Origin: a virus
Direction: 5' to 3' (one strand)
DNA length: 64,000 nt
Virus record (IMG/VR): IMGVR_UViG_3300029813_000275
Span: 1 to 64,000 of that record
Shown here one piece after another: positions 25,502 to 43,664 of the stretch (position 1 is the stretch's first letter; each line of letters opens with the position of its first letter). The notes under the pieces were generated by a model, which saw only the letters and a program-made list of their open reading frames with translations, made no database searches and had not been told where the DNA came from. A program made the translations under genes and the position numbers.

Positions 25502-26896
25502 TTAAATTGAAATACTTTCCTTTTCAGCCCATGACCTATCTACCGGGCAAATCTCAAAATCCACGCTTAACGGAACGCTGATCCACGACCATGCTTTTCG
25601 CAAATCTTCACATGTAACACGTTTTATAACTTTCACAACATGTTGCAATTCAGTAGGGGCAACATCAAAAATTATTGAATCATGTATTTGTCCGATTAAT
25701 TTGGTATCCCATTGTTCTTTAATCATGATTTTATCCAATTCAATGAATGACCATAAAAGGCAATGAAAAGCAGAACCACTGATAGGATAATTAGTAACTT
25801 CTTTTTTATTCATTACCCCGCTGCACCGAAAACCGGTTAATGTATCAATATAACCACGCTTTTGATATATACCCCACCACCGGTTTTTCCATGCCTGATA
25901 ACCGGCAAACCGGTTTTCCCAGAAATCATATTCAATTTGTTCTATATGATCCGTAAAACCGTTAAAGGATTTAATGCCTTTTGATATTAAATGATCTGAT
26001 AAATGCATTTCTTCAGATATTTTAATTCCCTGTCCGTTTTTCCATTTACTTTGCGGTAATCCTCCCCAACGACATGCCAGATTCACACCGCAATTTTTAT
26101 AATAATCACCGTAAAACTCCGGAAATACAAAACCGTTTTTGGCAGCGCCCCTTAATATTTTATGCTCTACTGAAGATTCGTCAAATTTATCAATCATAAA
26201 AATCTGCTTCGCCATATCGGCATGCATATCAGAAGCCGGATTATTTATATATTTTATCATATTTGGATCATTGTGGTAGCAAGCACTTATACAAACTTCC
26301 AATTTTGAATAATCCACTTCCAGTAACTGATGCCCCGGACGGGGATATATTGCCTTACGGCAAGCCTGCATAGCTTCCTCGTCCCTGATTGGTATGTTCT
26401 GAAAATTCGGATGATCCGAACTGCTGCGATAAGTACGAACTAAATGCAAATTGAAAAATGGATGAATATAACCATTGACTTGTTCCCGCATGAATCCTTC
26501 TAGGTAAGTATCCCGTATCTTTTTCAATTTACGAATTCTCAATATATCATTCAATTCCGGTATGTTCAGTTGTGTCAAAGCATCCTCATCAGTTGATCCC
26601 TGCTCACCCACAGTTAATTTCACAGGTTTTAATCCTTTTTCCTTATACAAAAAATATCCTAATTGCATATTGGAATTAATATTTGGTTTATTTTTTGTTG
26701 TATGTCCCCAATGTTGGTAGAATTTACTTCGGTAAAATTTATCTTCTAACAGCTTTATTTTTTGAGTTAAATGTTGTTTTTGCTGTTCAATGTAATCTAT
26801 GTCTACACGGATTCCTTGTCTTTCGGCTCTGGAAAAAGCCAAAATACCAGAATGTAACAAATCATATGCTATTTTAATATTTGGATTAAGATTCAT
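25502..26896 (-). CDS. family A DNA polymerase, polymerase (thumb-palm-fingers) domain only
   Basis: HPNFQNIPIR, LLEVDYSKLEVC (motif A DYSQIELR-like), RGAAKNGFVFPEFYG (motif B), QIHDSIIFDV (motif C HDE-like). Confidence 0.9.
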   Translation of the reverse strand: MNLNPNIKIAYDLLHSGILAFSRAERQGIRVDIDYIEQQKQHLTQKIKLLEDKFYRSKFYQHWGHTTKNKPNINSNMQLGYFLYKEKGLKPVKLTVGEQGSTDEDALTQLNIPELNDILRIRKLKKIRDTYLEGFMREQVNGYIHPFFNLHLVRTYRSSSDHPNFQNIPIRDEEAMQACRKAIYPRPGHQLLEVDYSKLEVCISACYHNDPNMIKYINNPASDMHADMAKQIFMIDKFDESSVEHKILRGAAKNGFVFPEFYGDYYKNCGVNLACRWGGLPQSKWKNGQGIKISEEMHLSDHLISKGIKSFNGFTDHIEQIEYDFWENRFAGYQAWKNRWWGIYQKRGYIDTLTGFRCSGVMNKKEVTNYPISGSAFHCLLWSFIELDKIMIKEQWDTKLIGQIHDSIIFDVAPTELQHVVKVIKRVTCEDLRKAWSWISVPLSVDFEICPVDRSWAEKESISI

Positions 26897-27374
26897 GATT
26901 TTTAAACCATTTGTTTGGTGTTAATATCCTGTTAAAGTTCTTTATTACGCTTAAATCCCATATACAACCTCCTGATACATCCCAGGCACAAAACACCATT
27001 GAAAAAAATGTAAGAAAACTATTGTATTTAATATCAGAATAATTTATTATTTCAATTCCTTTATAATCATTCTTTACTTTTTTCCAATCAATATATGGTA
27101 CATTTTTTATCATACATTTTTCATATCTTTTTTGAAATTCACATAATTCACCATTATCTGATATAACAAATACATCAGTCATATCAATATCTAATTCAAA
27201 TAAATATTTTTTTATCCAATCAGGTTCTTCACCATAACACCAATCAAGCCATTCATTATTAATTCCATACCATAATCCAAGAGGTTTAAAACTTTCAATC
27301 CCTGAATAGCATTTAGAATTAATTAATGTTTTGGAATTCGTATTATGCACTCTTTTCATAATTTTCTTCTCCAA
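26886..27374 (-). CDS. hypothetical protein
   Basis: 162-aa ORF between the two polymerase genes. Confidence 0.55.
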   Translation of the reverse strand: MEKKIMKRVHNTNSKTLINSKCYSGIESFKPLGLWYGINNEWLDWCYGEEPDWIKKYLFELDIDMTDVFVISDNGELCEFQKRYEKCMIKNVPYIDWKKVKNDYKGIEIINYSDIKYNSFLTFFSMVFCAWDVSGGCIWDLSVIKNFNRILTPNKWFKNHES

Positions 27375-27574
27375 TTATATTCTGATGCTGATATTTTGAA
27401 TACTTCACATTTACTACCATCAGGCATCCAAAATTCAAAATCTTCCGGATTATATCCATTTTTTTTCAATTCATTAATCAATAATCCAAGCCAACTTTCC
27501 AGTGGGATATGTTTTTTACCATCAAATGCCGCGCTCACCCCGTTTGGAAAAGTATATACTATTTTTTTATTCAT
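27356..27574 (-). CDS. hypothetical protein
   Basis: 72-aa ORF between the two polymerase genes. Confidence 0.5.
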   Translation of the reverse strand: MNKKIVYTFPNGVSAAFDGKKHIPLESWLGLLINELKKNGYNPEDFEFWMPDGSKCEVFKISASEYNWRRKL

Positions 27575-27591
27575 GATTAAAATTTTTATTT

Positions 27592-27819
27592 CTAAATCTT
27601 AATAAACCACCATTCTCTGCCATCAGTGCAATAATTAAATTCAATCTTAATAATTGCTATACATTTATAATATCCAAGAATGTAATCTTCTATAAATTTA
27701 ATTACTTCCGGATAACAATGCCCTCTAAGCACAATGAAAGATTTACTATTATAAGCTAATCTTAGCTCATGTTTGTAATCATTTTCAATTTTTGTTTTTA
27801 TTTTTGTAAGCTGTTCCAT
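27592..27819 (-). CDS. hypothetical protein
   Basis: 75-aa ORF between the two polymerase genes. Confidence 0.5.
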   Translation of the reverse strand: MEQLTKIKTKIENDYKHELRLAYNSKSFIVLRGHCYPEVIKFIEDYILGYYKCIAIIKIEFNYCTDGREWWFIKI

Positions 27820-27847
27820 GGTTTATAGTTTTAAATAGTTTATAATT

Positions 27848-28756
27848 TTAATAAAAAAGAGGTTTACAAAGCGATCCTCTTAATACTATTTGTAAAGCCC
27901 GTTCATAAGTAATCTCATTATTTTTAATATTCATCATCTGTTCATACCTTTTTGATTCTCTCTTTTTTAATCTTTCAAAACGTGTTTTATCAAACATAAT
28001 ACCGAATGCACAATAAGCACATCCCGTAGATTTTTCTCCTTTATCATAAATATCACAATACTTTAAATTATTCTGCTTTATATATTTCCAAACATCTTCT
28101 TTTGTCCAAATTGATAAAGGCATGCATGTATTTCTTTTGGTATTAATACAACTGGTTTGGAGATAACAAATTCTTCTGATTCTGGAATCAATTGCTTTAT
28201 CACCTATAAACATTCCATCTTTTCGAAATGATTTCATAGGTTTTATCTTTAAAAAATCACAGCATTTATCACTAATATCAAAAGGCGCATTGATTAAATA
28301 TTGATATTTTTTCGGTAATTTGAATGATTTTGTCCTTGTTCCATCTCTTTTGATGCCTGTTAAATATAAATTTCTGGTCGCTTCATTACGGGGATTAGGA
28401 TGACGTAAATCCCATATCATTCGAGCTGTTATTTTACTTATTAAAGGAAATCCATATTTATTTATAACTTCAGTAAAAGTAATATCCGGCTTAACTATTT
28501 TAACATTGTCTGTATTTTTAACAAATTTCAAAATTTCAGAAAATTCATTTGTAGTATTTGAAAATACTGCTTTTTTGTTTTTATTTATCATTCTAATAAG
28601 ATGAAGCATTACAACGCTATCTATCCCTCCAGAGAACGCTATCGTACTATTTGGATACATAGAAAAAAAAGAATCAATAATGTATAAAGAATGATCTATT
28701 TTTTGTGATAATGTCCAATTAATTCTATCATTCAATTCTTTATTTGAAATTTTCAT
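27848..28756 (-). CDS. PAPS reductase-like PP-loop ATP pyrophosphatase
   Basis: STIAFSGGIDSVVMLHL (SGGxDS PP-loop as in the PAPS_reduct/DndC/IbrA family); C-terminal CAYCAFG cysteines; 302 aa. Confidence 0.7.
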   Translation of the reverse strand: MKISNKELNDRINWTLSQKIDHSLYIIDSFFSMYPNSTIAFSGGIDSVVMLHLIRMINKNKKAVFSNTTNEFSEILKFVKNTDNVKIVKPDITFTEVINKYGFPLISKITARMIWDLRHPNPRNEATRNLYLTGIKRDGTRTKSFKLPKKYQYLINAPFDISDKCCDFLKIKPMKSFRKDGMFIGDKAIDSRIRRICYLQTSCINTKRNTCMPLSIWTKEDVWKYIKQNNLKYCDIYDKGEKSTGCAYCAFGIMFDKTRFERLKKRESKRYEQMMNIKNNEITYERALQIVLRGSLCKPLFY

Positions 28757-30051
28757 TAAAAAGGCAAATCATTATAATTCATTAATTCCATTTGAAGCAT
28801 ACTTAACCTGTATGCATAAATTGCATCAAGCCCGCAATATTCTAATAGTTTTTCCTGGCCACCAGGCTGTTTCAATAATTCATAAATCCTATTCATATTA
28901 TTTCCACCCTTTGTTGTGGCCTGTAAATATGAGGTAATTTCACTTGCATAATCTACTATCCCAAAATTTACGTATGTCTGAAATTTTAAACCGGTAATAC
29001 CCGGTCGATTATCCAAAACATGAGCAGCTAACATGCTATCCCATATCCAGTTTTGAATTGGTTGTTGTAATTGTTTAACGCCCCACACCTCCTCAAATTT
29101 TATATTGTGTGCTATTTTACCGATGTTAGGATTAGCAAGTAAATCAATGAAAGGTTGTCGTGCTTTTCGACTTTTCGGCATCATAAACACAAAACATTTA
29201 TTTTCACTGATAGCCACAGCAGCACAAATAATCCGATGTCCTTTACTATGTGGTTTCAACCCGGTTGTTTCATAATCAATAGCAACTTTATCAATTTTAA
29301 TAATATGATCCCCATATTTACCTTGCAAAGCAGATAGAATAGATAAATCTTCAATCGTTTCAATATTTGGTTCTTGATATACTGGAAAATATTGATGTTC
29401 AGGAAAACGTTCATTTGTTTGTCTAATAGCACGTTCCAAATCCTGTATCCATACTGTTTCTACTTCTTTTTCCGAACGGCTTACATAGCTGGAATGAAAC
29501 ATTGGACAAATCCAGGTATTGAAATCCTGATCAGGTATTGCCCATCCCCGCCATTTCATTATCCCTCCTAAGTCTTTTTTCCAACGATGTGCCAATAAGC
29601 AATACAAAGCAGAATTTCCTAACAATACAATCACTTTTGGTCGGTATCGTTCAATTGTTTGTAATATATTTTTCCGGCAACAATCAATTTCATAATTATT
29701 TGGTGTTCGGTTAATTCCTTCCTTATCTATTGGACGGCAATTTACTGCATTAACATTTAAACAATCTTCAAATAAATCTATTCCTAATCTGCGATATGTT
29801 TTCTGAAGTAATCTACCAGTTTTACCTTGCCATGGTTTACCCCGTTTATCTTCAATCTCCCCCGGAGCTTCCCCGATGTTGAGAATGCCTTTTTTGAAAT
29901 TACCAAATGGTTTCATTTTTGGATTTAGTACATTTCTACATAATCCGCATGAAACGCAGGAATAAGTTTTGCCATCCGGGCGGAATTTTGATTCAGTTTG
30001 TTTTGTTGTAAAAAATCCTTGGTTCATAATGCTTTTTTCAAACGATACCAT
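28756..30051 (-). CDS. uracil-DNA glycosylase family-4 domain fused to PolA-type 3'-5' exonuclease domain
   Basis: N-terminus: CVSCGLC and GEAPGEIEDKRGKPWQGKTGRLL (UDG4 motif A), FHSSY (HPS-like motif B). C-terminus: VAIDYETTGL (Exo I DxE) and exonuclease-like remainder. Ends at the exo/pol domain boundary. Confidence 0.8.
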   Translation of the reverse strand: MVSFEKSIMNQGFFTTKQTESKFRPDGKTYSCVSCGLCRNVLNPKMKPFGNFKKGILNIGEAPGEIEDKRGKPWQGKTGRLLQKTYRRLGIDLFEDCLNVNAVNCRPIDKEGINRTPNNYEIDCCRKNILQTIERYRPKVIVLLGNSALYCLLAHRWKKDLGGIMKWRGWAIPDQDFNTWICPMFHSSYVSRSEKEVETVWIQDLERAIRQTNERFPEHQYFPVYQEPNIETIEDLSILSALQGKYGDHIIKIDKVAIDYETTGLKPHSKGHRIICAAVAISENKCFVFMMPKSRKARQPFIDLLANPNIGKIAHNIKFEEVWGVKQLQQPIQNWIWDSMLAAHVLDNRPGITGLKFQTYVNFGIVDYASEITSYLQATTKGGNNMNRIYELLKQPGGQEKLLEYCGLDAIYAYRLSMLQMELMNYNDLPF

Positions 30052-30392: not shown

Positions 30393-31394
30393 CTATTCGT
30401 TCCATAACATTGATAAGTATTCCCAATTTTCACCTTCAAACTTCAAACGGTTTTCACCAAGTATACAGGTTAACGTTTCCGCCAAAATATCTTTTAAAAG
30501 ATATGGAGTAATGGAAAATGTTACCGGGTCACCATCATATTTCATATTTATTTCTTCTTCAAACCACCCAGAATCAGATTCACTTCTTACTTTTAATCTT
30601 TTATCTTTTAAAGTGATAATAATATGCTCATCCAAAAAATGATCGCGTTTACTAAATACAGTGGCGCGATCCAACACTTCATTAATAGTTTTCGGAAAGG
30701 TAATCGGAACACCTTCCACATCCATAAGATGAGCGCATTCAGGAAATTTATCTTCAAACACCCGGCAGGATATGATTGTCCCCTCATCAGTTTGAAAATG
30801 CACCCATCCTTCACCCTCAGTAATCATTTCCGGCTCTAATTTAATTAGTTCTGCAACTGATGTGGCCGGGATCAGGAATGTTTTAATAGGCATCTTTTCT
30901 TCTAACTGGCATCGGGTAATACGATAAGCATCCGACGCTTCAATAATATCTTCATTAATATGTACGCAAGTCAACGCCGGTCTACTCATATCGTGAGAAC
31001 ATGCTGCCATAGCAAATTTTATATGCTTAAGAAAATCTTCCGGTAATTTTTCCCATTTATCTTGTCTCCTGATTTCTTCCAGGGGTAATTTGATTTCCTG
31101 CTGAAGTGTTAGTCCGGCTTTTGCCCGGCCGGATTCCAAGATGATTTCATTCTCTTTTGTTGTAATTTCAATTTCATCCTTTTTAATTTTCCCCAGCAAT
31201 TTATATAACTCCTCAGCTTGAATAGCTCCTTCCATTTCCAGCCCTTCAACCGGATGAGAAATACTGATTTCATCATTGTATGTAACAACGCGCCCTTTCA
31301 TAAAGGCAAACGAATTGGATTGTTCAATCATTTCTTTGTTAGCCAACCCTGGCTTAACAATTTCTAATGCTTTTTGTAATTCTGTTTTGTTCAT
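30393..31394 (-). CDS. DNA polymerase sliding clamp (beta/DnaN-like)
   Basis: 333 aa; the N-terminus ELQKALEIVKPGLANKE....SFAFMKG.VVTYNDEISISHPVEG..MEGAIQAEELYKLL follows the DnaN pattern; adjacent to replication genes. Confidence 0.6.
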   Translation of the reverse strand: MNKTELQKALEIVKPGLANKEMIEQSNSFAFMKGRVVTYNDEISISHPVEGLEMEGAIQAEELYKLLGKIKKDEIEITTKENEIILESGRAKAGLTLQQEIKLPLEEIRRQDKWEKLPEDFLKHIKFAMAACSHDMSRPALTCVHINEDIIEASDAYRITRCQLEEKMPIKTFLIPATSVAELIKLEPEMITEGEGWVHFQTDEGTIISCRVFEDKFPECAHLMDVEGVPITFPKTINEVLDRATVFSKRDHFLDEHIIITLKDKRLKVRSESDSGWFEEEINMKYDGDPVTFSITPYLLKDILAETLTCILGENRLKFEGENWEYLSMLWNE

Positions 31395-31400
31395 TTTTTA

Positions 31401-31583
31401 TTATTTTAAATGTTTCTTTCTTGGATCACATCTACCAGTAATACAATATTGAGTTAATAAAACTTTAGTAATTTCTTGTTCCTTCAAAAAATAGAAACTT
31501 ACTAATCTTCTGTTTGCTTTTTTCTTGGTTAAACTTCTTCCAAGACTTCTATCAGTTAACCAAGTTGCCATATAGATTTTCAT
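31401..31583 (-). CDS. hypothetical 60-aa protein resembling the N-terminus of the adjacent DpdA
   Basis: MKIYMA...(18 aa)...RRLVSFYF versus DpdA MIIYFA...(17 aa)...RRLLSYFF. Confidence 0.35.
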   Translation of the reverse strand: MKIYMATWLTDRSLGRSLTKKKANRRLVSFYFLKEQEITKVLLTQYCITGRCDPRKKHLK

Positions 31584-31586
31584 GAT

Positions 31587-32663
31587 TTAAAAAAAACTAC
31601 TAATTTCTTTTCTTTTAAATGCCCAAGGCCATTCTGGCATGGATTTCTCCAAATCCAGAAAGTAAATAATATTCATTTCATCTCTGAGTTGGTATTTATT
31701 TGATATTCCTGGTTCTTTTATGATTTCCAGTTCTCTTTTACTTGTTTTGTTTTTTGGTTTCTTTTCAGCCCAACGTTCATTTATGGCTGGTTTATATGTT
31801 TGATCAACTTTTTTAAAGTCGGAATGTCCCAGTTTGTATCCTTTTTCGTGAATATAGTTGAGAAGAATTTGTTTATTAATTGGAGATAAAGTTTCAATAT
31901 GTTTTCCAGCCTCTTTAATGTTTGGATTTCGATTAGAAACTGTTATTTTCCAAGAATTCTCATCATAAATCCACCGTCCATTTTTGTACCGGGGAATAAA
32001 AATTGATCCCATCCTTCCAGTAATTACCCAAGAAGTACTATCCACACTATACCAGGGATAACGCAACATAATACTTAGAGCAGTTAATCCGAAACCATGC
32101 ACTTTCATTTTTGGGTATCCTTTTTGATCACACAAAAGATTAAGAAAAACAAAATCTAATTGTTTTATGATTTGTGTTTTCGATATTGTACCGCCTGCCA
32201 TTCCTCCCAACGCAATATAATCGTAACCACGGTTTAAATAACGTTTTAACCATTTTGGATCTTCGAAAGTAGTATGAAAAACTGGTAGTGGATGTAATCC
32301 GGCTTTCTCCATTATCATTTGATTTTTCCAAGTTTCTTTAGGACTACTAATCACATCTAAATTAGCATAAATATCAATTACATCCTTATGTTCTTTAATG
32401 AATGAAATGTAATCTTCAATGTTAATTTCTTTTCCTTGTGTCCAAGCAGAAAAAGCTCCTGAGTCAAGAAACAGTTCTACTTTTTTGTTTTTAGGCATGA
32501 TGTAATTGATTGTTCTAATCATTTCTATACTCTCCTTTTGATATCTTGGCATGTTCCACTCTTCAATTATGAAAAAATATGAAAGTAGGCGTCTTTTTCC
32601 TATAAGTAATACTTTTCTTTCTCTCTTATACGTTCCAGTAGCTCCAGCGAAATAAATGATCAT
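31587..32663 (-). CDS. dpdA: DpdA-type DNA transglycosylase (tRNA-guanine transglycosylase superfamily)
   Basis: [12 protein letters not shown] corresponds to the TGT catalytic DSGGFQ loop in its DpdA form; 358 aa; ATGA-coupled to folE and embedded in the que gene cluster. Confidence 0.7.
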
Positions 32664-33214
32664 TTTATCAGTTCCATTAATTCAATTCTGGCTTCAGACT
32701 TTTCCATGAAAGCTCCTTTCAAACTTGAAGTAGTCATTATAGAATGTTGTTTTGAAATTCCTCTCATTCTCATACACATATGAATTGCTTCAATAATACA
32801 GGCTGCTCCTAAAGGTTTCAAATATTTCATAAGAGCATACGTTACTTGTTCCCCGATTCGTTCTTGAATTTGTAAACGCCTTGCATAAATATCAACCAAT
32901 CGTGCCAATTTGGAAATGCCCACTACTTGTTTATCCGGAATGTAAGCAACATGAGCTTTTCCAAAAAATGGTAACATATGATGTTCACACATTGAGAAAA
33001 GTTCAATATCTTTGAGCAGCACAATTTGATCATAACCATCAGAATTGAAAGTTGTGGTTAATACATCTGCTGGACTTTTCTTATAACCGGTGTATAACTC
33101 AGTCCAAGAGCATATTATTCGTTTTGGGGTGTCTAATAAGCCCTCTCTGTTTGGATTCTCTCCAATATACTTTATCTGATTAATAAGATTTTGTTTAATT
33201 TCTTTTTCTTTCAT
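32660..33214 (-). CDS. folE: GTP cyclohydrolase I
   Basis: [21 protein letters not shown]....[24 protein letters not shown] is the FolE signature. Start placed at the ATG that forms an ATGA overlap with the queC stop; the ORF is also open to 33241. Confidence 0.9.
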
Positions 33215-33726
33215 ATCATAAGTTTTTGTCTTTCTCGACAATTAGAACAGTCACAATTATGCCAATTGTCATTATTTTTATAACAATTATAAAAATCAGT
33301 ATTATTTCTATTAAGTAAGAACTGAAAGCATTTTCTTTTAGTCCATCCAACAATTGGTAGTTTAACTTTAATTTTAAGAAGATGTCCATAAATTTTCAAA
33401 GTTAACCAATTTGCATCCCCCCATTTGTCAAACAAAGGAAGAATCCAACGAGTTCCTAAATAGATTTCATCATATCCTCGTATTTGTATTTGATTAATAA
33501 AGTGAAAGTTTCTTCCAGGTATATCATCCCAACCAGGCATTTTAATAGTAAAAAAATTAACTGTTTGGTGTAAACTACAAAGTTTCTTGGCTTTCTCTTG
33601 TTCTTTACTTTTGTAACTTTGATTATAATCCACAAAAAAAGCATCAAAACTTACTCCACGTTCAATTAGCTGACAAAACACAACTGCACTATCAAATCCA
33701 CCAGATAATAAAAGAGCCTTTTTCAT
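33211..33726 (-). CDS. queC: compact QueC-like PP-loop enzyme (7-cyano-7-deazaguanine synthase family; DpdL-type alternative not excluded)
   Basis: [14 protein letters not shown] (SGGxDS), VDYNQ (DYGQ-like), IPGRN, C-terminal NCY...C.C..CRER zinc-type cysteines; only 171 aa versus about 220-230 for typical QueC. Confidence 0.7.
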
Positions 33727-34067
33727 TTCTTTTTTTTAAGTGTAAAAGTAAACAGTGGATATAATGGTTGCCAAGACATTTTACCACTATGTGTGAACAT
33801 ATCAAGTATTACATGTACCAAAACTCCACTTGATAGTTCCGGTTTAACTAACCACAATACAATTATCAATAACATTGAGTGTGACACTCGATACATTATC
33901 AATTCCACTTTGGATAAGGAATTTGCATTAAAAGATTTTCCTGTCTTTCGTATTTTGATTTCATTCCAAACAAGTGGTAAGTCCGGAATAACTGCACCTA
34001 CAAAAAATCCTAAACCAAGTTGAGTAGCTCCTATTACACCGGACAGTAAATGCCATTTAAAATGCAT
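33723..34067 (-). CDS. small polytopic membrane protein, YdjM/DUF457-like putative metal-dependent hydrolase
   Basis: 114 aa; 3 hydrophobic helices; His/Asp positions (HFKWH, PDLP, SHS, HVILDMFTH) resemble the membrane-bound YdjM family; weak. Confidence 0.35.
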   Translation of the reverse strand: MHFKWHLLSGVIGATQLGLGFFVGAVIPDLPLVWNEIKIRKTGKSFNANSLSKVELIMYRVSHSMLLIIVLWLVKPELSSGVLVHVILDMFTHSGKMSWQPLYPLFTFTLKKKK

Positions 34068-34069
34068 CT

Positions 34070-34840
34070 TTATTTACTTTTAGCTATTGCAGGCAGTGCT
34101 TTGCCTTTTGACCATTGGCGTGTCCAACTGATAATAGTTGTTTTCTTTACCCGCCCATCAACTATTTTAAGTAGTTTTTCACAATCAGTTTCTCCATTTT
34201 TCCATGCAAAATAAACCAAAGCTTTATTTGATTTGGAGTAGTCTTTCACATCAGGAGATTTCTCCTTTTCAGTTTTTTCAAACTTTTCTTCTTTGACTTG
34301 TTTCGATTCTTCTCTTAGCACACCCAACATGACCATCCGAAGCTCTTTTGTGGTTTTGTACCTACTCAATTGTCCGCGAATTCCTTTGAACTCATCATTG
34401 CTTTTAGCAATATCCCGCAGGTCTTTCAATCTTTCTGCGGATTTGACTTCAGAAAATAAATCATCTCCTTCCTGTTTTTCTTCCTCTGTTTGGACTTCTT
34501 CAGCTTCTTCAAACTTTCCTTCAGTAGGATCCTCAAGTTCCTCAGAATCTTTCAATATCCCGAGTTCCTGAAAAACCTGGAGTACCGGTATTTTTATTTT
34601 TCCATCCCCGACAATTCCTTTCTTCCCCAACTCATCTTCGGAATTAACAAACAACTCCTGGAGAACTTTAAAGGTTTCATCTGTTAATTCATCATCTGGT
34701 GTAAGAAACAAAGCAGCTTCTTTTACCAACGTCTCCAATTCATCAGGTGGCACTTTTGTATCAACTGCAGGTTCAAATTCACCAATCAATTGAAGTTCTT
34801 CTGCTGCTGTGATTAACAGCGCTGTTTTAATTTTTGTCAT
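34070..34840 (-). CDS. highly acidic protein with basic C-terminal domain
   Basis: 256 aa; the N-terminal two thirds are very rich in D/E; the C-terminus is K/R-rich (...WTRQWSKGKALPAIAKSK); preceded by TTTGTATAAT motif. Confidence 0.55.
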   Translation of the reverse strand: MTKIKTALLITAAEELQLIGEFEPAVDTKVPPDELETLVKEAALFLTPDDELTDETFKVLQELFVNSEDELGKKGIVGDGKIKIPVLQVFQELGILKDSEELEDPTEGKFEEAEEVQTEEEKQEGDDLFSEVKSAERLKDLRDIAKSNDEFKGIRGQLSRYKTTKELRMVMLGVLREESKQVKEEKFEKTEKEKSPDVKDYSKSNKALVYFAWKNGETDCEKLLKIVDGRVKKTTIISWTRQWSKGKALPAIAKSK

Positions 34841-34876
34841 GATTTTTTTGATTTTTGATTAACATTTATTATTATT

Positions 34877-34886
34877 ATTATACAAA
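34877..34886 (-). promoter_or_regulatory. promoter-like motif TTTGTATAAT (copy 3)
   Basis: Minus strand GAAAAATAATTTGTATAATAATAA; 37 nt upstream of ATG at 34840. Confidence 0.5.
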
Positions 34887-34900
34887 TTATTTTTCAATTA

Positions 34901-35665
34901 TTATACTCCAATTTTATTATTCCATAAAACTATGTGTTCTCTAAGACCGAATCGCACATTTTCTTGTACTGCTAATTTAACAATAGCAGGACTATTTTTT
35001 AATATCTCTTTTCTGGTTCTGCCTTGCGGCATCAAAATTATTTGTTCTTTTAAGATATATCCGGGTGCTATAAAATCAGTTTCTATTTCTTTCCAATCTT
35101 TTTTCCAACAAATAACAAACTTGAACCATGCATTATTTTGACAAGATAATAGTTTGAGAACTGCTGGTTTGTATCTTGTAGAATACAAATTTCCAGAGTT
35201 TGAAAGTTTAGGTGAATTGTTCCATTGATCTACCATGCAGAACATATCCCAGTGGGGTAGTATTATACATTCATTTTCAAGTTCAATAAAAGGCTTAAAT
35301 TTATAATATGTAACGAATGCCTGCAAAAATTTAATGAGCCGGGTTTGTTGTTTTAAAGGACTTCCTCCTGTAATAACCAAATGTTGTCCATTATAAAGTT
35401 TTTCTGCTAAACCAACCTGATCCATTAATTCAAATAATTCTGTAAATGTATATGAACTACCATATTTTCTAATAACTTTGGTATCACACCATTTACAGTT
35501 TAAAATACAACCCTGTAATCGTAAGAATGTCGCAGGATATCCAGTAGTTATTCCTTCACCTTGTATTGTATCATAAAAAAGTTCCGAAACATCAAGATAT
35601 AGTTTCTCCCCTTCAGGAATAGTTTTTGTACAAGCTGGATTTGCTTTAATTAATTGTTTCATCAT
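34901..35665 (-). CDS. queE: 7-carboxy-7-deazaguanine synthase (radical SAM)
   Basis: LFYDTIQGEGITTGYPATFLRLQGCILNCKWCDT is the QueE signature (E.F.SiQGEG..G.p..F.R..GC.L.C.wCDT). Confidence 0.85.
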   Translation of the reverse strand: MMKQLIKANPACTKTIPEGEKLYLDVSELFYDTIQGEGITTGYPATFLRLQGCILNCKWCDTKVIRKYGSSYTFTELFELMDQVGLAEKLYNGQHLVITGGSPLKQQTRLIKFLQAFVTYYKFKPFIELENECIILPHWDMFCMVDQWNNSPKLSNSGNLYSTRYKPAVLKLLSCQNNAWFKFVICWKKDWKEIETDFIAPGYILKEQIILMPQGRTRKEILKNSPAIVKLAVQENVRFGLREHIVLWNNKIGV

Positions 35666-36033
35666 TTTCTCGCATCATAAGATGGTTCATATCTTGCTGT
35701 TGTTTTTGGAGTCTCTTTTACAGTAACCGCTATCATTTTTGGATAAGTTTTTGTGAAAGTATTAAATAAAAATTTAGCCAGATTTTCAGCAGTAGGATTA
35801 AAATCAACCACATCATTTAAATGTTTATGATCAAGATTGCTACCAATGAATTGTTTAAAAAGATTCAGGTTTCTGTAATCAATAACAAATCCTTTTTCAT
35901 CAAGAGAGATTGATTCCAGTTCAATTATCACGATATAGTTATGCCCGTGCAAATTTACACATGGATGATCCACAGGTAAATTTTCCAATTTGTGACTGGC
36001 TGAGAATGAAAATTCTTTTGAAATAGTGTACAT
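35662..36033 (-). CDS. queD: 6-carboxy-5,6,7,8-tetrahydropterin synthase
   Basis: FSFSASHKL......C.NLHGHNY.V.IE......GFVIDY..L......LDHKHLN, the PTPS/QueD signature. Confidence 0.85.
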   Translation of the reverse strand: MYTISKEFSFSASHKLENLPVDHPCVNLHGHNYIVIIELESISLDEKGFVIDYRNLNLFKQFIGSNLDHKHLNDVVDFNPTAENLAKFLFNTFTKTYPKMIAVTVKETPKTTARYEPSYDARK

Positions 36034-36038
36034 GATTT

Positions 36039-36239
36039 CTATTTTTTATGATTTAATTCCTTTTGCCATCCTTTTAATTTTTTCCTTTTTGGAAAATAGA
36101 TAGGATTTTGCCCTATCATAAAATGAACCTCACGTTTAGCTGTCTTAAGTTCTTTCTTCTGTTCCGGCAGTGGGTTTTTTATCATTCCTGCAATTGCAGA
36201 AAAAAGAACCAATAATCTGCTTTGGTTAAATGATCTCAT
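36039..36239 (-). CDS. hypothetical protein
   Basis: 66-aa ORF; hydrophobic N-terminus; preceded by TTTGTATAAT motif. Confidence 0.45.
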   Translation of the reverse strand: MRSFNQSRLLVLFSAIAGMIKNPLPEQKKELKTAKREVHFMIGQNPIYFPKRKKLKGWQKELNHKK

Positions 36240-36257
36240 ATATTATCCTTTTACTAT

Positions 36258-36267
36258 ATTATACAAA
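36258..36267 (-). promoter_or_regulatory. promoter-like motif TTTGTATAAT (copy 4)
   Basis: Minus strand AAAATAAAATTTGTATAATATAG; 19 nt upstream of ATG at 36239. Confidence 0.45.
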
Positions 36268-36296
36268 TTTTATTTTTAACATTTACCAAAAACTTC

Positions 36297-37037
36297 CTAA
36301 AAAAATGCTTGAAGTCCATTTTTCTTTTGTTTTATAATTATTTCATGTCTTCTTTTCGAAATTTTTATAGCTTTTTCATTTATATCACATCCAATAAAAT
36401 TTCTATTTAGATCAAAACAAACTTCCGCAGTAGTTCCTGACCCCATATAAAAATCTGCTACTAAATCATCTTCGTTTGAACTTGCTTTTATTATTCGTTC
36501 TAATAATGCTTTTGGTTTCTGTGTACTATATATATGATATTCATCATCTATTTGAAAAATACCACTTTTGTCTTGAATGCCTTTTATATTCCACCAATCT
36601 TGTAAATTACTTCCATAACAATTTTTTTGTTTATTAAAAGTATAAGAATCTGTCTTACTATATAGTAATATATTATCATGGGTTCTTCTAAAAAACTTAC
36701 TATCTCCGCCGCCGGCCCCATACAACCAAACAATTTCATTTAAAAATCTGTCATATCCAAATACGTCATCCATTATACATCGAATCCAATGATTAATTCT
36801 CCAATCCATTTGCAAATAAATACTTCCGGTATTTTTTAAAATACGATACATTTCTTTAATACGTGGGATATAATGTTTTTCAATTATTTTATATTCAGGT
36901 TTCAAATCTTTATATTCTTTATATTTTTTTCCAGTGCCATAAAGAATATCACAATAAATTAAATCAATAGTATTATCCAGTATTTCAACCATCAATTCTA
37001 AATTATCACATTGTCGTATATCCATTGTAATTTTCAT
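36297..37037 (-). CDS. beta-class N6A/N4C-type DNA methyltransferase with atypical motif IV (DILY)
   Basis: IDLIYCDILYG at the position of DPPY; YSTQKPKALLERII; DLVADFYMGSGTTAEV (motif I FxGSGTT); FIGCDINEKA. Confidence 0.75.
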   Translation of the reverse strand: MKITMDIRQCDNLELMVEILDNTIDLIYCDILYGTGKKYKEYKDLKPEYKIIEKHYIPRIKEMYRILKNTGSIYLQMDWRINHWIRCIMDDVFGYDRFLNEIVWLYGAGGGDSKFFRRTHDNILLYSKTDSYTFNKQKNCYGSNLQDWWNIKGIQDKSGIFQIDDEYHIYSTQKPKALLERIIKASSNEDDLVADFYMGSGTTAEVCFDLNRNFIGCDINEKAIKISKRRHEIIIKQKKNGLQAFF

Positions 37038-37040
37038 CTT

Positions 37041-38582
37041 TCACCAAAAACTTCCCAAAAAAGGCTGTCCTCTATGTAAATTCTGTAAAATAGTTACTTC
37101 ATTCAAATTACTGAAATCCCCTTCACGTATTGCCAATTCATTGATTCTCATTAATCCCAATTGTTTTTCCCGGTCTTTTGTATCCCTATTCAAGCCGTAC
37201 ATTGCAGTTACATGATCAATTTTACGGCGATCCTCTGAAAAATTAGTTATTTTTAACCGGTTTTGCTCATAACTTTTCGCATCAGCTTGCGTAGCGGTCA
37301 CCACTAAACGGTGTCCTTTCTGGGATAAGCTACGCAATCCCCTCCAAATTTCATCCTGCTGATGCCGAAATTCCATTTTTGTTTTCGCTATTAATATATC
37401 AGCATAGTCAATTACAATTAAATCAGGAATGAAATCATCCTGTTTTTCCCAAATATCTAAAAGCGATTCTATTTCTTCAACAGATAAAGTTTTATTTACA
37501 TGCGTAGATAATTTGAATCGCCTTTTATTTTTTATAAAAAATTTATCAATGGCATCTTTTGCTTCCACAACTGTTAGCGGCCCCCCTGAATCAATCTGTT
37601 CAATCCAGGGGGTACCTAATTTATCTGTTTTATAACTTTCACAATTGAAACAAGGACAATAATCCGGGTTCTCTTTATATTCCTCTATTAATTCATCCAA
37701 TGTGATTTCCTCACGTAAAGATTCTTTTGTTCTTCCCTCAAATATTCCGAAACCACATTCCCGTTCTTCTTTATTACACATATCCAACTGATTTAAAACA
37801 CAATCCCGGACAGGCTGATACATTTTACCACTATATTTTTTTAAGTTTGATTTTTTTGTTAAATAAGTGCATATACGTTTTAATTGCTGATTTTCTGTCA
37901 TATCACCAGCCTGAAAAAAAGCTACTTTTGCTTTCTGTTTACAACCACGCATTGCTATATCCAATAACCAAAATGTTTTTCCACGTTTGCCAGACCCCAT
38001 CAAAGCAACGAATCCGCCGCGTATCATTTGAGTATTCCAAAATTCTCCCAACTGGCGTGGATATTTAACAACAGGCCGTCCGGCTTCAGCAAATGCTTTA
38101 TCTACCCGTTGTAATGCTGTTTCATTGCTTAAATCCAAATCAATTCCCGAATCTATTGTAAGTGATTTATATTCATGTGCTATTTTTTCAGCTTCCAGTA
38201 ATTCCCCTTTATCAACAAGTGTTAAAATTTCATCACCATGTTGTTTTAAATGCTGCTCTTTTAAATAATCGTATGTTTGGTCAAGTAAGTATTCAAGATT
38301 AAATTTTCCTTCCTGTTCATATTCTTCACTTAAAGCAGGTAGAATTTCCTGCTCAATTTCTTCCGCTATATCTTTTTGAAGCCCCTCTTTTAACTTTTGA
38401 TAATAAATTCCTTCAATATCACGCTCAGGCGCTTTATTATATTTCTCGTAGTATTCCATCACCCACATTGCTAAGCGACGGGCAGTAGACGATTGTAAGA
38501 ATTTAACATCAAAAACATTATGAATTTGTTGAATAAATTCCGTGGATGTGATTAATCCAATTATGATTTTACGTTCAATCAT
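37041..38582 (-). CDS. DnaB-like replicative DNA helicase (RecA-fold)
   Basis: GFVALMGSGKRGKTF (Walker A), DLIVIDYADIL (Walker B), helical N-terminal domain, inserted Cys cluster (C..C...C / CPCFNC). Confidence 0.7.
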   Translation of the reverse strand: MIERKIIIGLITSTEFIQQIHNVFDVKFLQSSTARRLAMWVMEYYEKYNKAPERDIEGIYYQKLKEGLQKDIAEEIEQEILPALSEEYEQEGKFNLEYLLDQTYDYLKEQHLKQHGDEILTLVDKGELLEAEKIAHEYKSLTIDSGIDLDLSNETALQRVDKAFAEAGRPVVKYPRQLGEFWNTQMIRGGFVALMGSGKRGKTFWLLDIAMRGCKQKAKVAFFQAGDMTENQQLKRICTYLTKKSNLKKYSGKMYQPVRDCVLNQLDMCNKEERECGFGIFEGRTKESLREEITLDELIEEYKENPDYCPCFNCESYKTDKLGTPWIEQIDSGGPLTVVEAKDAIDKFFIKNKRRFKLSTHVNKTLSVEEIESLLDIWEKQDDFIPDLIVIDYADILIAKTKMEFRHQQDEIWRGLRSLSQKGHRLVVTATQADAKSYEQNRLKITNFSEDRRKIDHVTAMYGLNRDTKDREKQLGLMRINELAIREGDFSNLNEVTILQNLHRGQPFLGSFW

Positions 38583-40309: not shown

Positions 40310-41353
40310 TTATTCCTCCTTTATATTAATTTTAGTTCCAAAAAAATTCATTAATCGATTTATTGAACCAATTAGGTCAGAAAATTTATCAAGTGTTGTT
40401 AATTCAAATTGCATGTTCTTTATCCTTTCAACTTTCATGTTGCCTAATCTATCATTGATGGAAGATATGGTTCTGAAAAGTTTCCCAGATTCATATAGGA
40501 TATTTTGAATTTCTAAAAGTATGTTTTCTATTTCCATATCTCGATTACTTTTTCCATCTAATTCTTGTTTGATCATTGTTTTCATGGTTGGTTCAAATGA
40601 TCGACGCATTCCATGCACTTTTTTATCTTTGCTTCTACCTTTAAAAGAATCAATTCTTGTTTTAACTTTTTTAGCAACTTCAAGTTCTTTTTCTTTTGTG
40701 ATATCCCTTCGTGGTTCTTGTTCTTTGATTTCACCTATGGATTTTTTAAAACTTGATCTGACACTGGTATTTCCAAAGGCTTTTGCTATTTTAATGTCTG
40801 TTTCTTCTCCATCCAACACTTCTAATGCTTTTTGTATGCTATATTGTTTCCAGGGCTTTCCAAGAAATTTAAGTATAATTGGCCAACCAACTCCTTGGTT
40901 TTTTAATCTTATCCAATATTCTGGGTCTTTACTAAAATCAATGAAAAGCATATAAAAGGTTTCATTTATATGCTTTAATTCTTTCCAAGAATTATATTTT
41001 CGTATTTCGGTATTGATGAAATCACGGACAGCCCGAATCGTTTCAATCTTTACAGCATCATCAAATTTCCAGTATTCCATATTTTCATTTGCCATTATAC
41101 GTACCATTGTAGAATTATCCAATTTTCTAACTGGAATATCAACTTTCTTAATGTTGAGTTCTTGTAAAGCTATTAGGCGGTGATGCCCATAAGCAATTTG
41201 GTAAGAACCATTTTGTTGTCTTGCTACAATATTATCCCAGAATGTTGTTTCAGAAATTGATGCTTTTAAAGCATCTACTTTCATTCTATCCACAGGATAT
41301 TTATCCATATTACGATATGGATTTGGTTTGAGATCTTTTACTTGTACTTTCAT
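40310..41353 (-). CDS. ParB-like nuclease-domain protein
   Basis: VKDLKPNPYRNMD....D...V.AL..SI........NIVARQ..NGSYQIAYGHHRLIAL is the ParB/Srx N-terminal domain signature; 347 aa. Confidence 0.75.
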   Translation of the reverse strand: MKVQVKDLKPNPYRNMDKYPVDRMKVDALKASISETTFWDNIVARQQNGSYQIAYGHHRLIALQELNIKKVDIPVRKLDNSTMVRIMANENMEYWKFDDAVKIETIRAVRDFINTEIRKYNSWKELKHINETFYMLFIDFSKDPEYWIRLKNQGVGWPIILKFLGKPWKQYSIQKALEVLDGEETDIKIAKAFGNTSVRSSFKKSIGEIKEQEPRRDITKEKELEVAKKVKTRIDSFKGRSKDKKVHGMRRSFEPTMKTMIKQELDGKSNRDMEIENILLEIQNILYESGKLFRTISSINDRLGNMKVERIKNMQFELTTLDKFSDLIGSINRLMNFFGTKINIKEE

Positions 41354-43208: not shown

Positions 43209-43664
43209 TTAAGAGAATGCCAATCGCAAATCACGTATTCCAATCCAGACTTTTTGCCATGACCAATGTTTCTTTTCTACCATTTCCCGGGCAATTTTTT
43301 TACGTGCAAGTTCTGGTGTAACAGATGAATATTTAATAGGATTACTAAGAACAACTTCTGCCATTTCTTGTGCATCTTTAGAAAGATTTTCAAAATAAGC
43401 CTTTGAATAAACCGGACGGGCTATATTAATATCTTCTACACCACAAACATGACCGTTTTGTTTTTCTTGTTCTTTCAGATAATTCTTTAAATGTGAAGTT
43501 ATGCAATGCCACATGTAGGTTGAGATTTTTCCTTGCTTTGGATCATAGTTTTTCAGGGCTTCACAATAAGCCAATGCAGCTTCCTGGAATAAGTCATCAC
43601 ATTCAATCCTGGTTGTTGTATGAAACGACCAAGCAATTTTCCTGATTAGATTTATGTTTTCCAT
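43209..43664 (-). CDS. sigma-70-family (ECF-like) RNA polymerase sigma factor
   Basis: 151 aa; CDDLFQEAALAYCEALKNYDPKQGKISTYMWHCITSHLKNYL matches sigma region 2 (DL.QE....l..a...yd...g.fstY....i......). Confidence 0.55.
   Translation of the reverse strand: MENINLIRKIAWSFHTTTRIECDDLFQEAALAYCEALKNYDPKQGKISTYMWHCITSHLKNYLKEQEKQNGHVCGVEDINIARPVYSKAYFENLSKDAQEMAEVVLSNPIKYSSVTPELARKKIAREMVEKKHWSWQKVWIGIRDLRLAFS

Follow-up and report, generated by a model that had tools for sequence, protein, structure and literature searches.

A predicted phage 7-deazaguanine DNA-modification module with a candidate two-part QueC-family enzyme

The closest described systems are the clusters of Queuovirinae-type phages, such as Escherichia phages CAjan and 9g (dPreQ0/dG+), which combine a DpdA1 transglycosylase with FolE, QueD, QueE and a QueC of ~240 aa. 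[quoted passage not shown] The QueC family also includes departures from the canonical enzyme. Gat-QueC, found in phage 9g and in archaea, joins a QueC-family domain to an accessory domain and occurs, as here, in a phage DpdA cluster (PMC10516641); its QueC part is canonical and its accessory domain is a glutamine (class-II) amidotransferase. Cap9 of type IV CBASS is a minimal QueC-family protein deazaguanylase of ~185 aa (PDB 9NTO) that occurs in a CD-NTase/Cap10 context.

We analyzed a window of 64,000 nucleotides of viral DNA that matches no GenBank phage at the DNA level and comes from a phage lineage that is low in G+C and different from the Queuovirinae-type phages. Between 31401 and 37037 its minus strand carries genes for a DpdA-type DNA-guanine transglycosylase, FolE, QueD, QueE and a QueC-like PP-loop protein (Table 1). 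All ORFs named in the first-pass annotation are present on the minus strand at the coordinates it gave. Its statement that these five genes lie on one strand within 5.6 kb agrees with the coordinates and the profile matches, and the mostly ATGA-type coupling that it described is borne out by four overlaps (QueD/QueE, YdjM-like/mini-QueC, mini-QueC/FolE and FolE/DpdA). We take this region to be a phage 7-deazaguanine DNA-modification module.

Table 1. Features of the module and of the genes interspersed with it
Feature	Position	Strand	Basis
orf60, small basic protein, conserved, next gene after DpdA	31401..31583	-	homologues and pairwise similarity
DpdA-type DNA-guanine transglycosylase (358 aa), DpdA1/CAjan-like	31587..32663	-	phrog_887, E 5e-55
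FolE, GTP cyclohydrolase I	32660..33241	-	PF01227, E 1e-69
mini-QueC (171 aa), QueC-family PP-loop ATP-pyrophosphatase	33211..33726	-	Pfam QueC, TIGR00364, PADLOC, fold
YdjM-like helical His/Asp protein (114 aa), mini-QueC partner	33723..34067	-	overlap/fusion across loci
modular acidic/basic protein (256 aa)	34070..34840	-	homologues in L002-L014, L068
TTTGTATAAT motif, promoter-like, 37 nt ahead of the acidic-protein start	34877..34886	-	
QueE, radical-SAM CDG synthase (254 aa)	34901..35665	-	phrog_2076, E 1.7e-45
QueD, CPH4 synthase (123 aa)	35662..36033	-	PF01242, E 2.7e-30
orf66, basic ORFan, pI 10.7, first ORF after second promoter-like motif	36039..36239	-	no family match
TTTGTATAAT motif, promoter-like, 19 nt ahead of orf66	36258..36267	-	
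Beta-class N6/N4 DNA methyltransferase (246 aa), motif IV DILY	36297..37037	-	PF01555, 148.5 bits

The transglycosylase is 38% identical to CAjan DpdA (E 8e-49) and has the same catalytic motifs. Its family profile matches bacterial DpdA 7UI4 (E 1.5e-4), and among the residues that could be aligned D67, F71, D103, H130 and D208 correspond to D95, F99, D130, H181 and D256 of the bacterial enzyme; the loop by which the protein was initially recognized spans residues 65-74. FolE exceeds the TIGR00063 cut-off (222.5 against 181.6 bits) and probably begins at the 33214 ATG, for a length of 184 aa, and its ATGA overlaps the stop codon of mini-QueC. QueE carries CxxxCxxC at residues 53-60 (CILNCKWC), and its matches to several NCBIfam QueE models are under their cut-offs. 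QueD scores 88.0 bits against TIGR03367 (cut-off 89.25) and has a CxxxHGH motif (CVNLHGH) at residue 25, which rules out the alternative that this QueD-family protein is DpdL. In 13 of 16 relatives a homologue of the orf60 product, at 42-65% identity, comes after DpdA, and the orf60 product resembles the N-terminal 36 residues of DpdA itself, with pairwise similarity to DpdA residues 22-35 (E 0.002).

The window and the CAjan/9g-type clusters agree in the local order FolE-DpdA-small ORF-sliding clamp-DNA polymerase, and the window, like the dPreQ0 group, has no amidotransferase. A Pfam scan of the 29 other minus-strand ORFs found no QueF, ArcS, GATase, CxxCxxCC (DpdM-type) or formyltransferase domain, and neither Gat-QueC, DpdL, DpdM nor DpdN was found, in agreement with the earlier report of no QueF, ArcS or Gat-QueC. 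Because none of these domains was found and QueD is not DpdL, the dPreQ0 proposed in that report is a fair default. Since the QueC-like protein is not a canonical QueC, the complete preQ0 module that it described is something we can only infer.

The enzyme that had been called QueC-like does belong to the PP-loop family, but it is ~50 residues shorter than a real QueC and is not a canonical one, and we refer to it as mini-QueC. Its Pfam QueC match (47 bits) is confined to residues 5-65, its TIGR00364 score of 38 bits is far short of the 150-bit cut-off, and it matches the PADLOC 'QueC' model (PDLC00911) with E 6.7e-15. Its top sequence match in the PDB is Cap9 (9nto_B, E 9e-4), and the best folds for its AF2 model are Cap9 (target-normalized TM-score 0.75) and canonical QueC 3bl5 (0.67; Foldseek E 2.8e-6), with which it shares a Rossmann-like fold. 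Like canonical QueC, the mini-QueC family has the SGGxDS PP-loop, the RN pair in VPxRN and the YPDC Asp, and the window gene, again like canonical QueC, shares an operon with QueD and QueE. The family also retains YxQ(x)5E (YxQxYxxxE, where canonical QueC has YxQxHxxE), a spacing that is the same in Cap9, and the Cap9 residues equivalent to these conserved motifs bind deazaguanine and ATP. At 30-45% identity, ~90 clusters of the family still hold the PP-loop and ~25 further invariant positions.

Other parts of the sequence differ. Canonical QueC has an insertion of ~27 aa before (V/I)PxRN that mini-QueC does not, and YPDC corresponds to LPLFDK(W/Y)xDxNW, in which Leu-Phe takes the place of a Tyr that is essential in E. 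coli QueC (PMC13329287). The H(x)4YxDCxxxF of Cap9 becomes R(x)4LFDKxxxA. The window mini-QueC carries the zinc motif C-x9-C-x-C-xx-C, and relatives fused to the YdjM-like domain have no Cys4 site, unlike canonical QueC. Full conversion to the nitrile by mini-QueC is not assured from its sequence, because the YPDC Tyr is replaced, the insertion is missing and the fused forms are without the Cys4 zinc site.

What accompanies mini-QueC is a small protein that Cap9 does not have. We found the YdjM-like and mini-QueC domains adjacent with overlapping genes, or fused as a single protein of 246-256 aa, in ~20 non-redundant viral loci (L017, L020, L022-L038, L076 and L079-L081). The genes overlap by ATGA in the window and also overlap in L017, L020, L037, L038 and L076, and on three contigs seeded independently from the YdjM-like protein (L079, L080 and L081) an overlapping mini-QueC was next in all three. 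Both domains occur in one protein of 245-274 aa at 15 IMG/VR loci (11 distinct proteins), and the protein database holds ~65 clusters of such fusions at 90% identity. Gene order around the pair varies by lineage, but the two partners are not separated and keep a DpdA-like gene and FolE/QueD/QueE as neighbors, and an HMM of canonical QueC found no other QueC in the pair-bearing loci. The exception is a close relative (L019, mini-QueC 85% identical) with no YdjM-like gene ahead of mini-QueC on a contig of only 6.7 kb. The mini-QueC/YdjM-like family is absent from 50,697 GenBank phage records. Because it is fused or adjacent to mini-QueC in these ~20 loci, we consider the YdjM-like gene to be an obligate partner and, on sequence grounds, part of the QueC step itself.

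The partner is unlike the amidotransferase of Gat-QueC, being a helical His/Asp domain of ~105 aa attached to a truncated rather than a canonical QueC part. H5, D28, N34, E35, H62, S63, H84, D88 and H92 (alignment numbering; one higher in the full protein) are invariant or nearly so, and the four His, two Asp and the Asn-Glu pair persist down to 27% identity. A similar His/Asp ligand pattern occurs in YdjM/DUF457 (PF04307) and in zinc-dependent phospholipase C (Zn_dep_PLPC, PF00882), which match the HxxxDxxxH region weakly: of 47 members examined, 16 match the former and 22 the latter, with all scores under the curated cut-offs and a domain only ~60% as long as those families. The protein probably binds metal, judging by the His/Asp pattern alone. 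Its AF2 model is a five-helix bundle (pLDDT 95.6) with no significant structural relative in the PDB by Foldseek (best E 3.2), and the concatenated window pair, modeled from an alignment that includes the natural fusions, gave pLDDT 93.7 and pTM 0.80.

The remaining genes had been described as passengers, any of which might tailor the base, together with the YdjM-like gene. The four are not equivalent, given that the YdjM-like gene belongs to the QueC step, and we place the acidic protein, orf66 and the methyltransferase outside deazaguanine chemistry. The 256-aa protein is less than the "extremely acidic" one that had been reported, with pI 4.9, a net charge of -12 and a basic C-terminus. It matches 284 representative clusters and nothing in Pfam, PHROG or PADLOC. 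Its putative DNA-binding C-terminal domain of ~55 aa is also found alone and is elsewhere swapped for a sequence that by eye resembles a winged-helix or ParB-like domain. We regard it as a conserved, modular, non-enzymatic member of the replication module of this phage lineage. The methyltransferase does have the atypical catalytic motif noted earlier, with DILY at residue 30 aligning to DPPY of solved methyltransferases; DILY is kept in 25 viral homologues, of which just one has a Que gene nearby. Between helicase and QueD no methyltransferase occurs in L076 (no ORF), L077 (a 70-aa ORF only, not homologous to orf66) or most of L002-L014, and we take this gene to be an independent insertion rather than a module member.

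The two internal promoter-like motifs are also enriched. Six exact copies of TTTGTATAAT occur in the window against 0.89 expected, a number reached in none of 100 shuffles, and five of the six are minus-strand copies that precede a start codon by 19-45 nt and have a common longer context, AAAAAnnTTTGTATAATAT. The motif at 34877-34886 would head an acidic-YdjM-miniQueC-FolE-DpdA-orf60 unit and that at 36258-36267 an orf66-QueD-QueE unit.

We favor, as probable, a replication-module operon in which a base is made from GTP and swapped for guanine in the phage's own DNA, with the CDG step carried out by a two-part QueC. FolE would convert GTP to H2NTP, QueD would convert H2NTP to CPH4, and QueE would convert CPH4 to 7-carboxy-7-deazaguanine (CDG). 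The minimal PP-loop domain would then adenylate the CDG carboxylate and, with its YdjM-like partner, form the amide or nitrile in place of canonical QueC; the partner domain may well be a lid or a metal module, making up for what the truncated active site lacks. The DpdA1-type transglycosylase would exchange guanine in DNA for the product. The observations behind this proposal are what the genes encode, the conservation of catalytic residues, the fact that the two proteins are paired or fused, and their location in the slot of QueC. Sister phages (L002-L014) have the order helicase-QueD-QueE-acidic-QueC-FolE-DpdA-orf60-clamp, with a full-length QueC of 220-260 aa in the slot held by the pair in the window. 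Because the pair sits exactly where these phages, whose DpdA is 54-70% identical, have an ordinary QueC, preQ0 is the most likely product, giving dPreQ0 in DNA, with dADG as second choice.

Alternatively, the two-part enzyme might make something other than preQ0, leaving dADG or an undescribed 7-deazaguanine derivative in phage DNA, whether by stopping at ADG, by joining adenylated CDG to some amine in place of ammonia, the way Cap9 and QatC use a protein N-terminus, or by acting on CDG already inserted in DNA. By size, profile score and fold mini-QueC is nearer to Cap9 than to QueC, and Cap9 goes no further than an N-substituted amide; mini-QueC also has the YxQ(x)5E spacing of Cap9, the stacking Tyr and the insertion covering the QueC pocket are gone, an extra His/Asp domain always accompanies it, and some DpdA enzymes accept several intermediates of the pathway for insertion (PMC10516641, PMC6884629). 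However, the exchange of QueC within an otherwise conserved cluster, beside so similar a DpdA, argues for the same product, no candidate gene for an amine donor or acceptor is conserved beside the pair, and neither a CD-NTase nor a QatB-like partner accompanies it, so we regard a different product as rather unlikely. That mini-QueC is a decayed, inactive remnant, with the host performing the last step or CDG itself being inserted, is very improbable: it is truncated and far under the QueC equivalog cut-off, and some phages have no QueC at all (PMC6884629), but the ~90 clusters retain their invariant positions, AF2 confidence for the pair is very high, and a decaying gene would not fuse repeatedly to a conserved partner.

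Two further readings concern the neighbors. The YdjM-like protein might be a small membrane protein, an anchor or a means of deazaguanine-base uptake or retention, linked to mini-QueC for localization rather than catalysis. Its nearest Pfam family is the YdjM inner-membrane family, it is marginally hydrophobic for a membrane protein (GRAVY 0.47, Kyte-Doolittle 19-residue maxima of 1.6-2.0), its weak Foldseek neighbors are membrane helical bundles, and the CAjan cluster contains a putative preQ0 transporter. We consider this improbable, since the YdjM-like protein is not similar to that transporter, of which the window has no homologue, its helices are short (10-24 residues) and bear invariant polar His/Asp/Asn/Glu, and its covalent fusion, through a very short linker, with an enzyme that is soluble and that in the fused forms has lost its own zinc site points to a shared catalytic unit. 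The view of the first-pass annotation, a canonical preQ0 module with unrelated passengers, is distinctly improbable, even though the genes are interleaved and co-oriented, promoter-like motifs precede the acidic protein and orf66, and the acidic protein holds its position between QueE and QueC in the sister phages. The acidic protein has low-complexity linkers, exchangeable C-terminal domains and no enzyme family match, and it also tracks the replication module where DpdA and Que genes are absent, between helicase and clamp in L068. The methyltransferase is a full-length PF01555 protein of a family not tied to Que genes and is missing in the nearest relatives (L076 and L077), and orf66 has no homologue in L001-L016, L076 or L077.

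We suggest that DNA carrying the product of this two-part QueC step would be protected from restriction. A shortened QueC paired with, or fused to, a small, putatively metal-binding helical protein would represent an undescribed form of the enzyme, seen so far only in uncultivated viruses.

The cluster had been described as a complete preQ0-type 7-deazaguanine DNA-modification module interrupted by four passenger genes, each a possible tailor of the base. The observation itself was confirmed and its interpretation holds in part, but the picture of the passengers does not. Our main result, judged from sequence comparison, is that one supposed passenger, the YdjM-like protein, is the partner of the QueC-like PP-loop protein (mini-QueC). 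This corrects the reading of the cluster: one of the four is core to the pathway, and the other three (the acidic protein, orf66 and the methyltransferase) are unrelated to its chemistry.

Gene families were assigned with Pfam, PHROGs and NCBIfam. The window has a G+C content of ~32%, and the cluster sits inside a long minus-strand gene run (about 13.5-48 kb), the phage's replication and nucleotide-metabolism module. Plus-strand ORFs lie on either side of this run, among them a large terminase. ATGA overlaps are found at four cluster junctions, and 2 nt separate the acidic-protein and YdjM-like genes. Further along the run, a family-A DNA polymerase is encoded in two pieces, with a PAPS-reductase-like PP-loop protein (a weak BrxP-like match) and a 162-aa ORF between them.

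Coordinates of the module, its surroundings and related features
Feature	Position	Strand	Remark
DnaB-like helicase	37041-38582	-	first in transcription direction
DNA methyltransferase	36297-37037	-	
orf66	36039-36239	-	
QueD	35662-36033	-	
QueE	34901-35665	-	
Acidic/basic protein, 256 aa	34070-34840	-	
YdjM-like protein, 114 aa	33723-34067	-	
QueC-like protein (mini-QueC), 171 aa	33211-33726	-	
FolE	32660-33241	-	start probably 33214
DpdA	31587-32663	-	
orf60	31401-31583	-	
Sliding clamp	30393-31394	-	
UDG/3'-5' exonuclease protein	28756-30051	-	
Family-A DNA polymerase, both pieces	25502-30051	-	UDG + 3'-5' exonuclease, 28756-30051; polymerase domain, 25502-26896
PAPS-reductase-like PP-loop protein	27848-28756	-	between polymerase pieces
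ParB_N protein	40310-41353	-	~3 kb upstream of cluster
Sigma-70 region-2 protein	43209-43664	-	
AAAAAnnTTTGTATAATAT motif sites	12140, 25486, 34877, 36258, 43191	-	each before a minus-strand gene
Extended FolE, sister phages	L005:5493-6377		also L002, L006, L008-L010, L012-L014

Exact copies of TTTGTATAAT occur six times in the window against an expectation of 0.89, and six or more were seen in 0 of 100 shuffles. Five of these copies lie on the minus strand in intergenic positions, 19-45 nt 5' of a start codon, and have the context AAAAAnnTTTGTATAATAT in common. Because of these copies and their placement, the module looks like two transcription units, one comprising orf66, QueD and QueE and the other running from the acidic protein through the YdjM-like protein, mini-QueC, FolE and DpdA to orf60 and continuing into the clamp gene. 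Among the phage's own products is a sigma-70 region-2 protein, a candidate sigma factor for which the AAAAAnnTTTGTATAATAT sites are candidate promoters.

The QueC of the proposed complete preQ0 set is not a canonical QueC. Mini-QueC scores 38 bits on the NCBIfam equivalog TIGR00364, far below the cut-off of 150.3, and is 171 aa long versus about 220 aa for the canonical enzyme. The Pfam QueC model (PF06508) matches at 47.3 bits (gathering threshold 22) over residues 5-65 only, and is outscored by the PADLOC model 'QueC' (PDLC00911), which we take from its 190-position length to be a CBASS (Cap9-type) model. The best solved-structure match by sequence was Cap9 (9NTO_B, E 9e-4), a minimal QueC-family protein of type IV CBASS. 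For motif comparison we used the QueC signature of Libby et al. 2026 (PMC13329287). Mini-QueC keeps SGGxDS (SGGFDS, residues 8-13) and (V/I)PxRN (IPGRN, residues 69-73), is missing the ~27-residue insertion before VPxRN, and has LPLFDK instead of YPDC; YxQxHxxE appears as YNQSYKSKE, with Cap9-type spacing, Tyr in place of His and Glu displaced by one position. E. coli QueC cannot do without Y35 and Y131 (PMC13329287). For the QueC zinc site C(x)8CxxCxxC, mini-QueC has four Cys spaced C-x9-C-x-C-xx-C (residues 148-163). Compared with Cap9, mini-QueC matches in fold and carries YxQ(x)5E and RN but not the YxDC of H(x)4YxDCxxxF. The Cap9 operon has a CD-NTase and the TGT-like Cap10; the neighbors of mini-QueC are FolE, DpdA, QueD and QueE. 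Pfam scans of the ORFs around mini-QueC found no CD-NTase.

Mini-QueC homologues of 171-177 aa on other contigs are each overlapped 5' by a gene for a 119-120-aa YdjM-like protein with 28-36% identity to the window's 114-aa protein (E 1e-16 to 1e-21), and this pairing is kept although the order of the surrounding DpdA, FolE, QueD and QueE genes varies. Three database homologues are single proteins of 246-262 aa with an N-terminal YdjM-like and a C-terminal mini-QueC part. A motif-based scan of IMG/VR yielded 17 loci, 15 with the fused form (11 distinct proteins) and two with the split pair, and every one adjoins a DpdA-like gene and FolE/QueD/QueE. A profile search of 5.8 billion proteins returned ~65 fusion clusters, together with ~25 mini-QueCs and 24 YdjM-like proteins that stand alone; on all three contigs seeded independently from stand-alone YdjM-like proteins, a mini-QueC gene overlaps the 3' end. 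The Cys4 site is gone in the fused forms and in some split forms; the window protein keeps its four Cys. In L076 and L077, the window's closest relatives, the order is helicase-QueD-QueE-acidic protein-YdjM-like-mini-QueC, and an HMM built from canonical QueCs detected no further QueC in the pair or fusion loci. The sole exception to the pairing is L019, a 6.7-kb contig in which the acidic-protein gene leads directly into a mini-QueC 85% identical to that of the window. One 108-kb split-pair viral contig also carries an IS200/IS605-type TnpA (Y1 transposase) and a TnpB/Cas12f-like gene (L017:1148-2669).

Searching IMG/VR via DpdA gave 16 relatives at 50-70% identity, which have in common the order helicase-QueD-QueE-acidic protein-QueC-FolE-DpdA-orf60-clamp-UDG/exonuclease. 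The interval from QueE to FolE is spanned in 12 of the 16, and all 12 have a full-length QueC of 220-260 aa; in the window, the YdjM-like/mini-QueC pair occupies this slot. That the pair displaces QueC from the same position, beside a conserved DpdA, speaks most strongly for a product of the same kind.

The QueE-FolE interval is a gene-turnover hot spot. Two sister phages each have two QueC-family paralogues (L007:3322-5107 and L011:8093-9426), and the former has a CxxCxxCC protein (PF03692, YkgJ/DpdM-like) between QueE and FolE; these gene sets may make yet another derivative. In another sister phage, QueE is a 523-aa ORF broken by a NUMOD3-containing insert (L002:5652-7223), and in a further one a GIY-YIG homing endonuclease lies within the cluster (L003:7082-7552). 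Most sister phages, though not the window, encode a FolE with an N-terminal extension of ~115 aa (YGVPKGGMI...) that has no Pfam match.

The YdjM-like family has invariant or near-invariant H5, D28, N34, E35, H62, S63, H84, D88 and H92 (alignment numbering; add one for the full protein) down to 27% identity. YdjM/DUF457 (PF04307) matches at 18-19 bits against a threshold of 29, with sub-threshold matches in 16 of 47 members, and the zinc-dependent phospholipase C Pfam gives sub-threshold matches in 22 of 47. AF2 models the protein as a five-helix bundle (pLDDT 95.6). A Foldseek search of the 113-aa domain against the PDB returned nothing significant and did not confirm a phospholipase C/P1 nuclease fold; the sole significant match in BFVD was a UniProt fusion protein annotated "QueC [uncultured Caudovirales phage]". 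The 114-aa protein showed no similarity to the putative preQ0 transporter of CAjan. When the window pair was concatenated and modeled with an alignment that included natural fusions, AF2 gave a pLDDT of 93.7 and a pTM of 0.80, and the C-terminal half of the AF2 model overlays Cap9 at a TMt of 0.75 and QueC at 0.67. We infer a metal-binding role for the helical His/Asp domain, which would complete or cover the truncated active site. A membrane anchor is the weaker alternative: the protein is only borderline hydrophobic, and its invariant polar residues lie in helices that are short.

The base-exchange enzyme appears intact. The window DpdA shares 38% identity with DpdA of Escherichia phage CAjan over 222 residues (E 8e-49) and matches phrog_887 (E 5e-55); CAjan DNA has dPreQ0 at about 32% of G positions (PMC6884629). 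With a single DpdA as query, phmmer found no match in the PDB, and the solved bacterial DpdA 7UI4 was reached only by a family profile of 17 DpdA-like sequences (E 1.5e-4). In that alignment, with 7UI4 numbering corrected for a 20-residue tag, window D67, F71, D103, H130 and D208 correspond to Salmonella DpdA D95 (general acid/base), F99 (base stacking), D130 and H181 (both base recognition) and D256 (nucleophile), and D67, D103 and D208 are invariant across the 17 sequences. Thus the TGT-fold catalytic aspartates, the loss of which would have told against the module, are present. Tandem DpdA paralogues occur in related viral contigs (L071:1124-4213, L075:13318-15139). The 60-aa basic product of orf60, found 3' of DpdA in 13 of the 16 relatives, resembles the N-terminal 36 residues of DpdA (MKIYMA...RRLVSFYFL vs MIIYFA...RRLLSYFFI, pairwise E 0.002) and may be an N-terminal piece of DpdA that was duplicated or split off. 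Genes with a ParB N-terminal domain adjoin the DpdA-like gene in split-pair loci (L017:6105-6755, L020:2679-3380, L081:6602-7237), recalling the pairing of bacterial DpdA with DpdB. The window's own ParB_N protein was ruled out as a DpdB analogue, its similarity to these three being at the domain level only.

[quoted passage not shown] A weak QueF match falls inside FolE and reflects the shared T-fold. The window protein with CVNLHGH, i.e. the QueD motif CxxxHGH, is therefore QueD; CVNLHGH instead of LxxxHRHxF rules out the CDG decarboxylase DpdL.

The remaining supposed passengers have associations of their own. The acidic protein has a pI of 4.9, an acidic center and a basic C-terminus, and an exhaustive search gathered 284 representative clusters. 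The family is modular: a helical motif at the N-terminus is joined by an acidic linker to a middle motif, from which a Lys-rich linker leads on to a ~55-aa C-terminal domain. This last domain also stands alone as a 70-106-aa protein and is swapped in some relatives, where by eye the C-terminus resembles ParB (P0157) or a winged helix (P0142, P0147, P0151, P0156). Because of these alternative C-termini, we suggest that the family may tether its N-terminal modules to DNA. All 11 loci found via the C-terminal domain belong to the same phage lineage, and one (L068) has the gene between helicase and clamp with no DpdA or Que genes. The acidic protein is best read as a DNA-associated replication-module protein, not a tailoring enzyme. 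For orf66, sequence comparison that included the relatives found no detectable homologue, and the 70-aa ORF at the same position in L077 is not similar to it.

The methyltransferase was correctly noted to have an atypical catalytic motif. It is a full-length β-class N6/N4 enzyme (PF01555, 148.5 bits vs 26.7, profile positions 1-220 of 221) with the SAM-binding motif I FxGxG as FYMGSGTT at residue 196, and DILY aligns to the DPPY of motif IV, departing from (D/N/S)PP(Y/F). All 25 viral homologues, at 48-74% identity, keep the variant D(I/V/C)L(Y/F), and just one of them is near a Que gene. The closest relatives of the window lack the methyltransferase gene. These homologues represent a widespread viral methyltransferase family (L039-L063) in which the variant is embedded in IDLIYCDILYGTG(R/K).

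We consider it probable that the two-part QueC is functional and that the module modifies DNA with a 7-deazaguanine base made by way of it. Should this be so, dPreQ0 would be the product with slightly better than even likelihood, dADG would be a lesser candidate, and something else would be only a little less likely than dADG. An unlikely reading is that the virus-only YdjM-like::mini-QueC combination is a new 7-deazaguanine branch point and not a plain QueC substitute. Under it, the His/Asp metal domain and open active site would stop the reaction at the amide; alternatively, adenylated CDG would be coupled to a different amine, or the enzyme would act on CDG already in DNA. The window phage and dozens of uncultivated fusion carriers would then hold a base outside the catalogue of eight.

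The system is one of the phage DpdA/preQ0 modules, a known class, and most resembles the CAjan/9g type. What is new is the QueC step carried out by a pair or fusion, because searches found no precedent: tblastn with the fusion and 114-aa proteins had no match in 50,697 GenBank phage records, and the 2026 PF06508 survey (PMC13329287) has neither pair nor fusion in any cluster it describes. Two motif scans built on the mini-QueC and fusion profiles found no relative in 185,579 bacterial and archaeal GTDB species genomes, although scans on one or two short motifs do not prove absence. At the DNA level the region matched no GenBank phage, and a full-text search found, among the papers it covered, none linking QueC with DUF457, YdjM or YbcI.

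7-Deazaguanine bases in phage DNA thwart restriction enzymes and, in vitro, Cas9. Which base a phage carries is predicted from the known enzymes, namely FolE, QueD, QueE, QueC, DpdA and a small number of tailoring enzymes. A set of uncultivated phages appears to do the QueC step by a different two-part enzyme, which current annotation either labels "QueC" or misses. Should its product be preQ0, this enzyme would carry out a two-step ATP-dependent reaction in a new and compact way and add another case of QueC-fold remodeling; should the product be different, a new DNA base awaits discovery.
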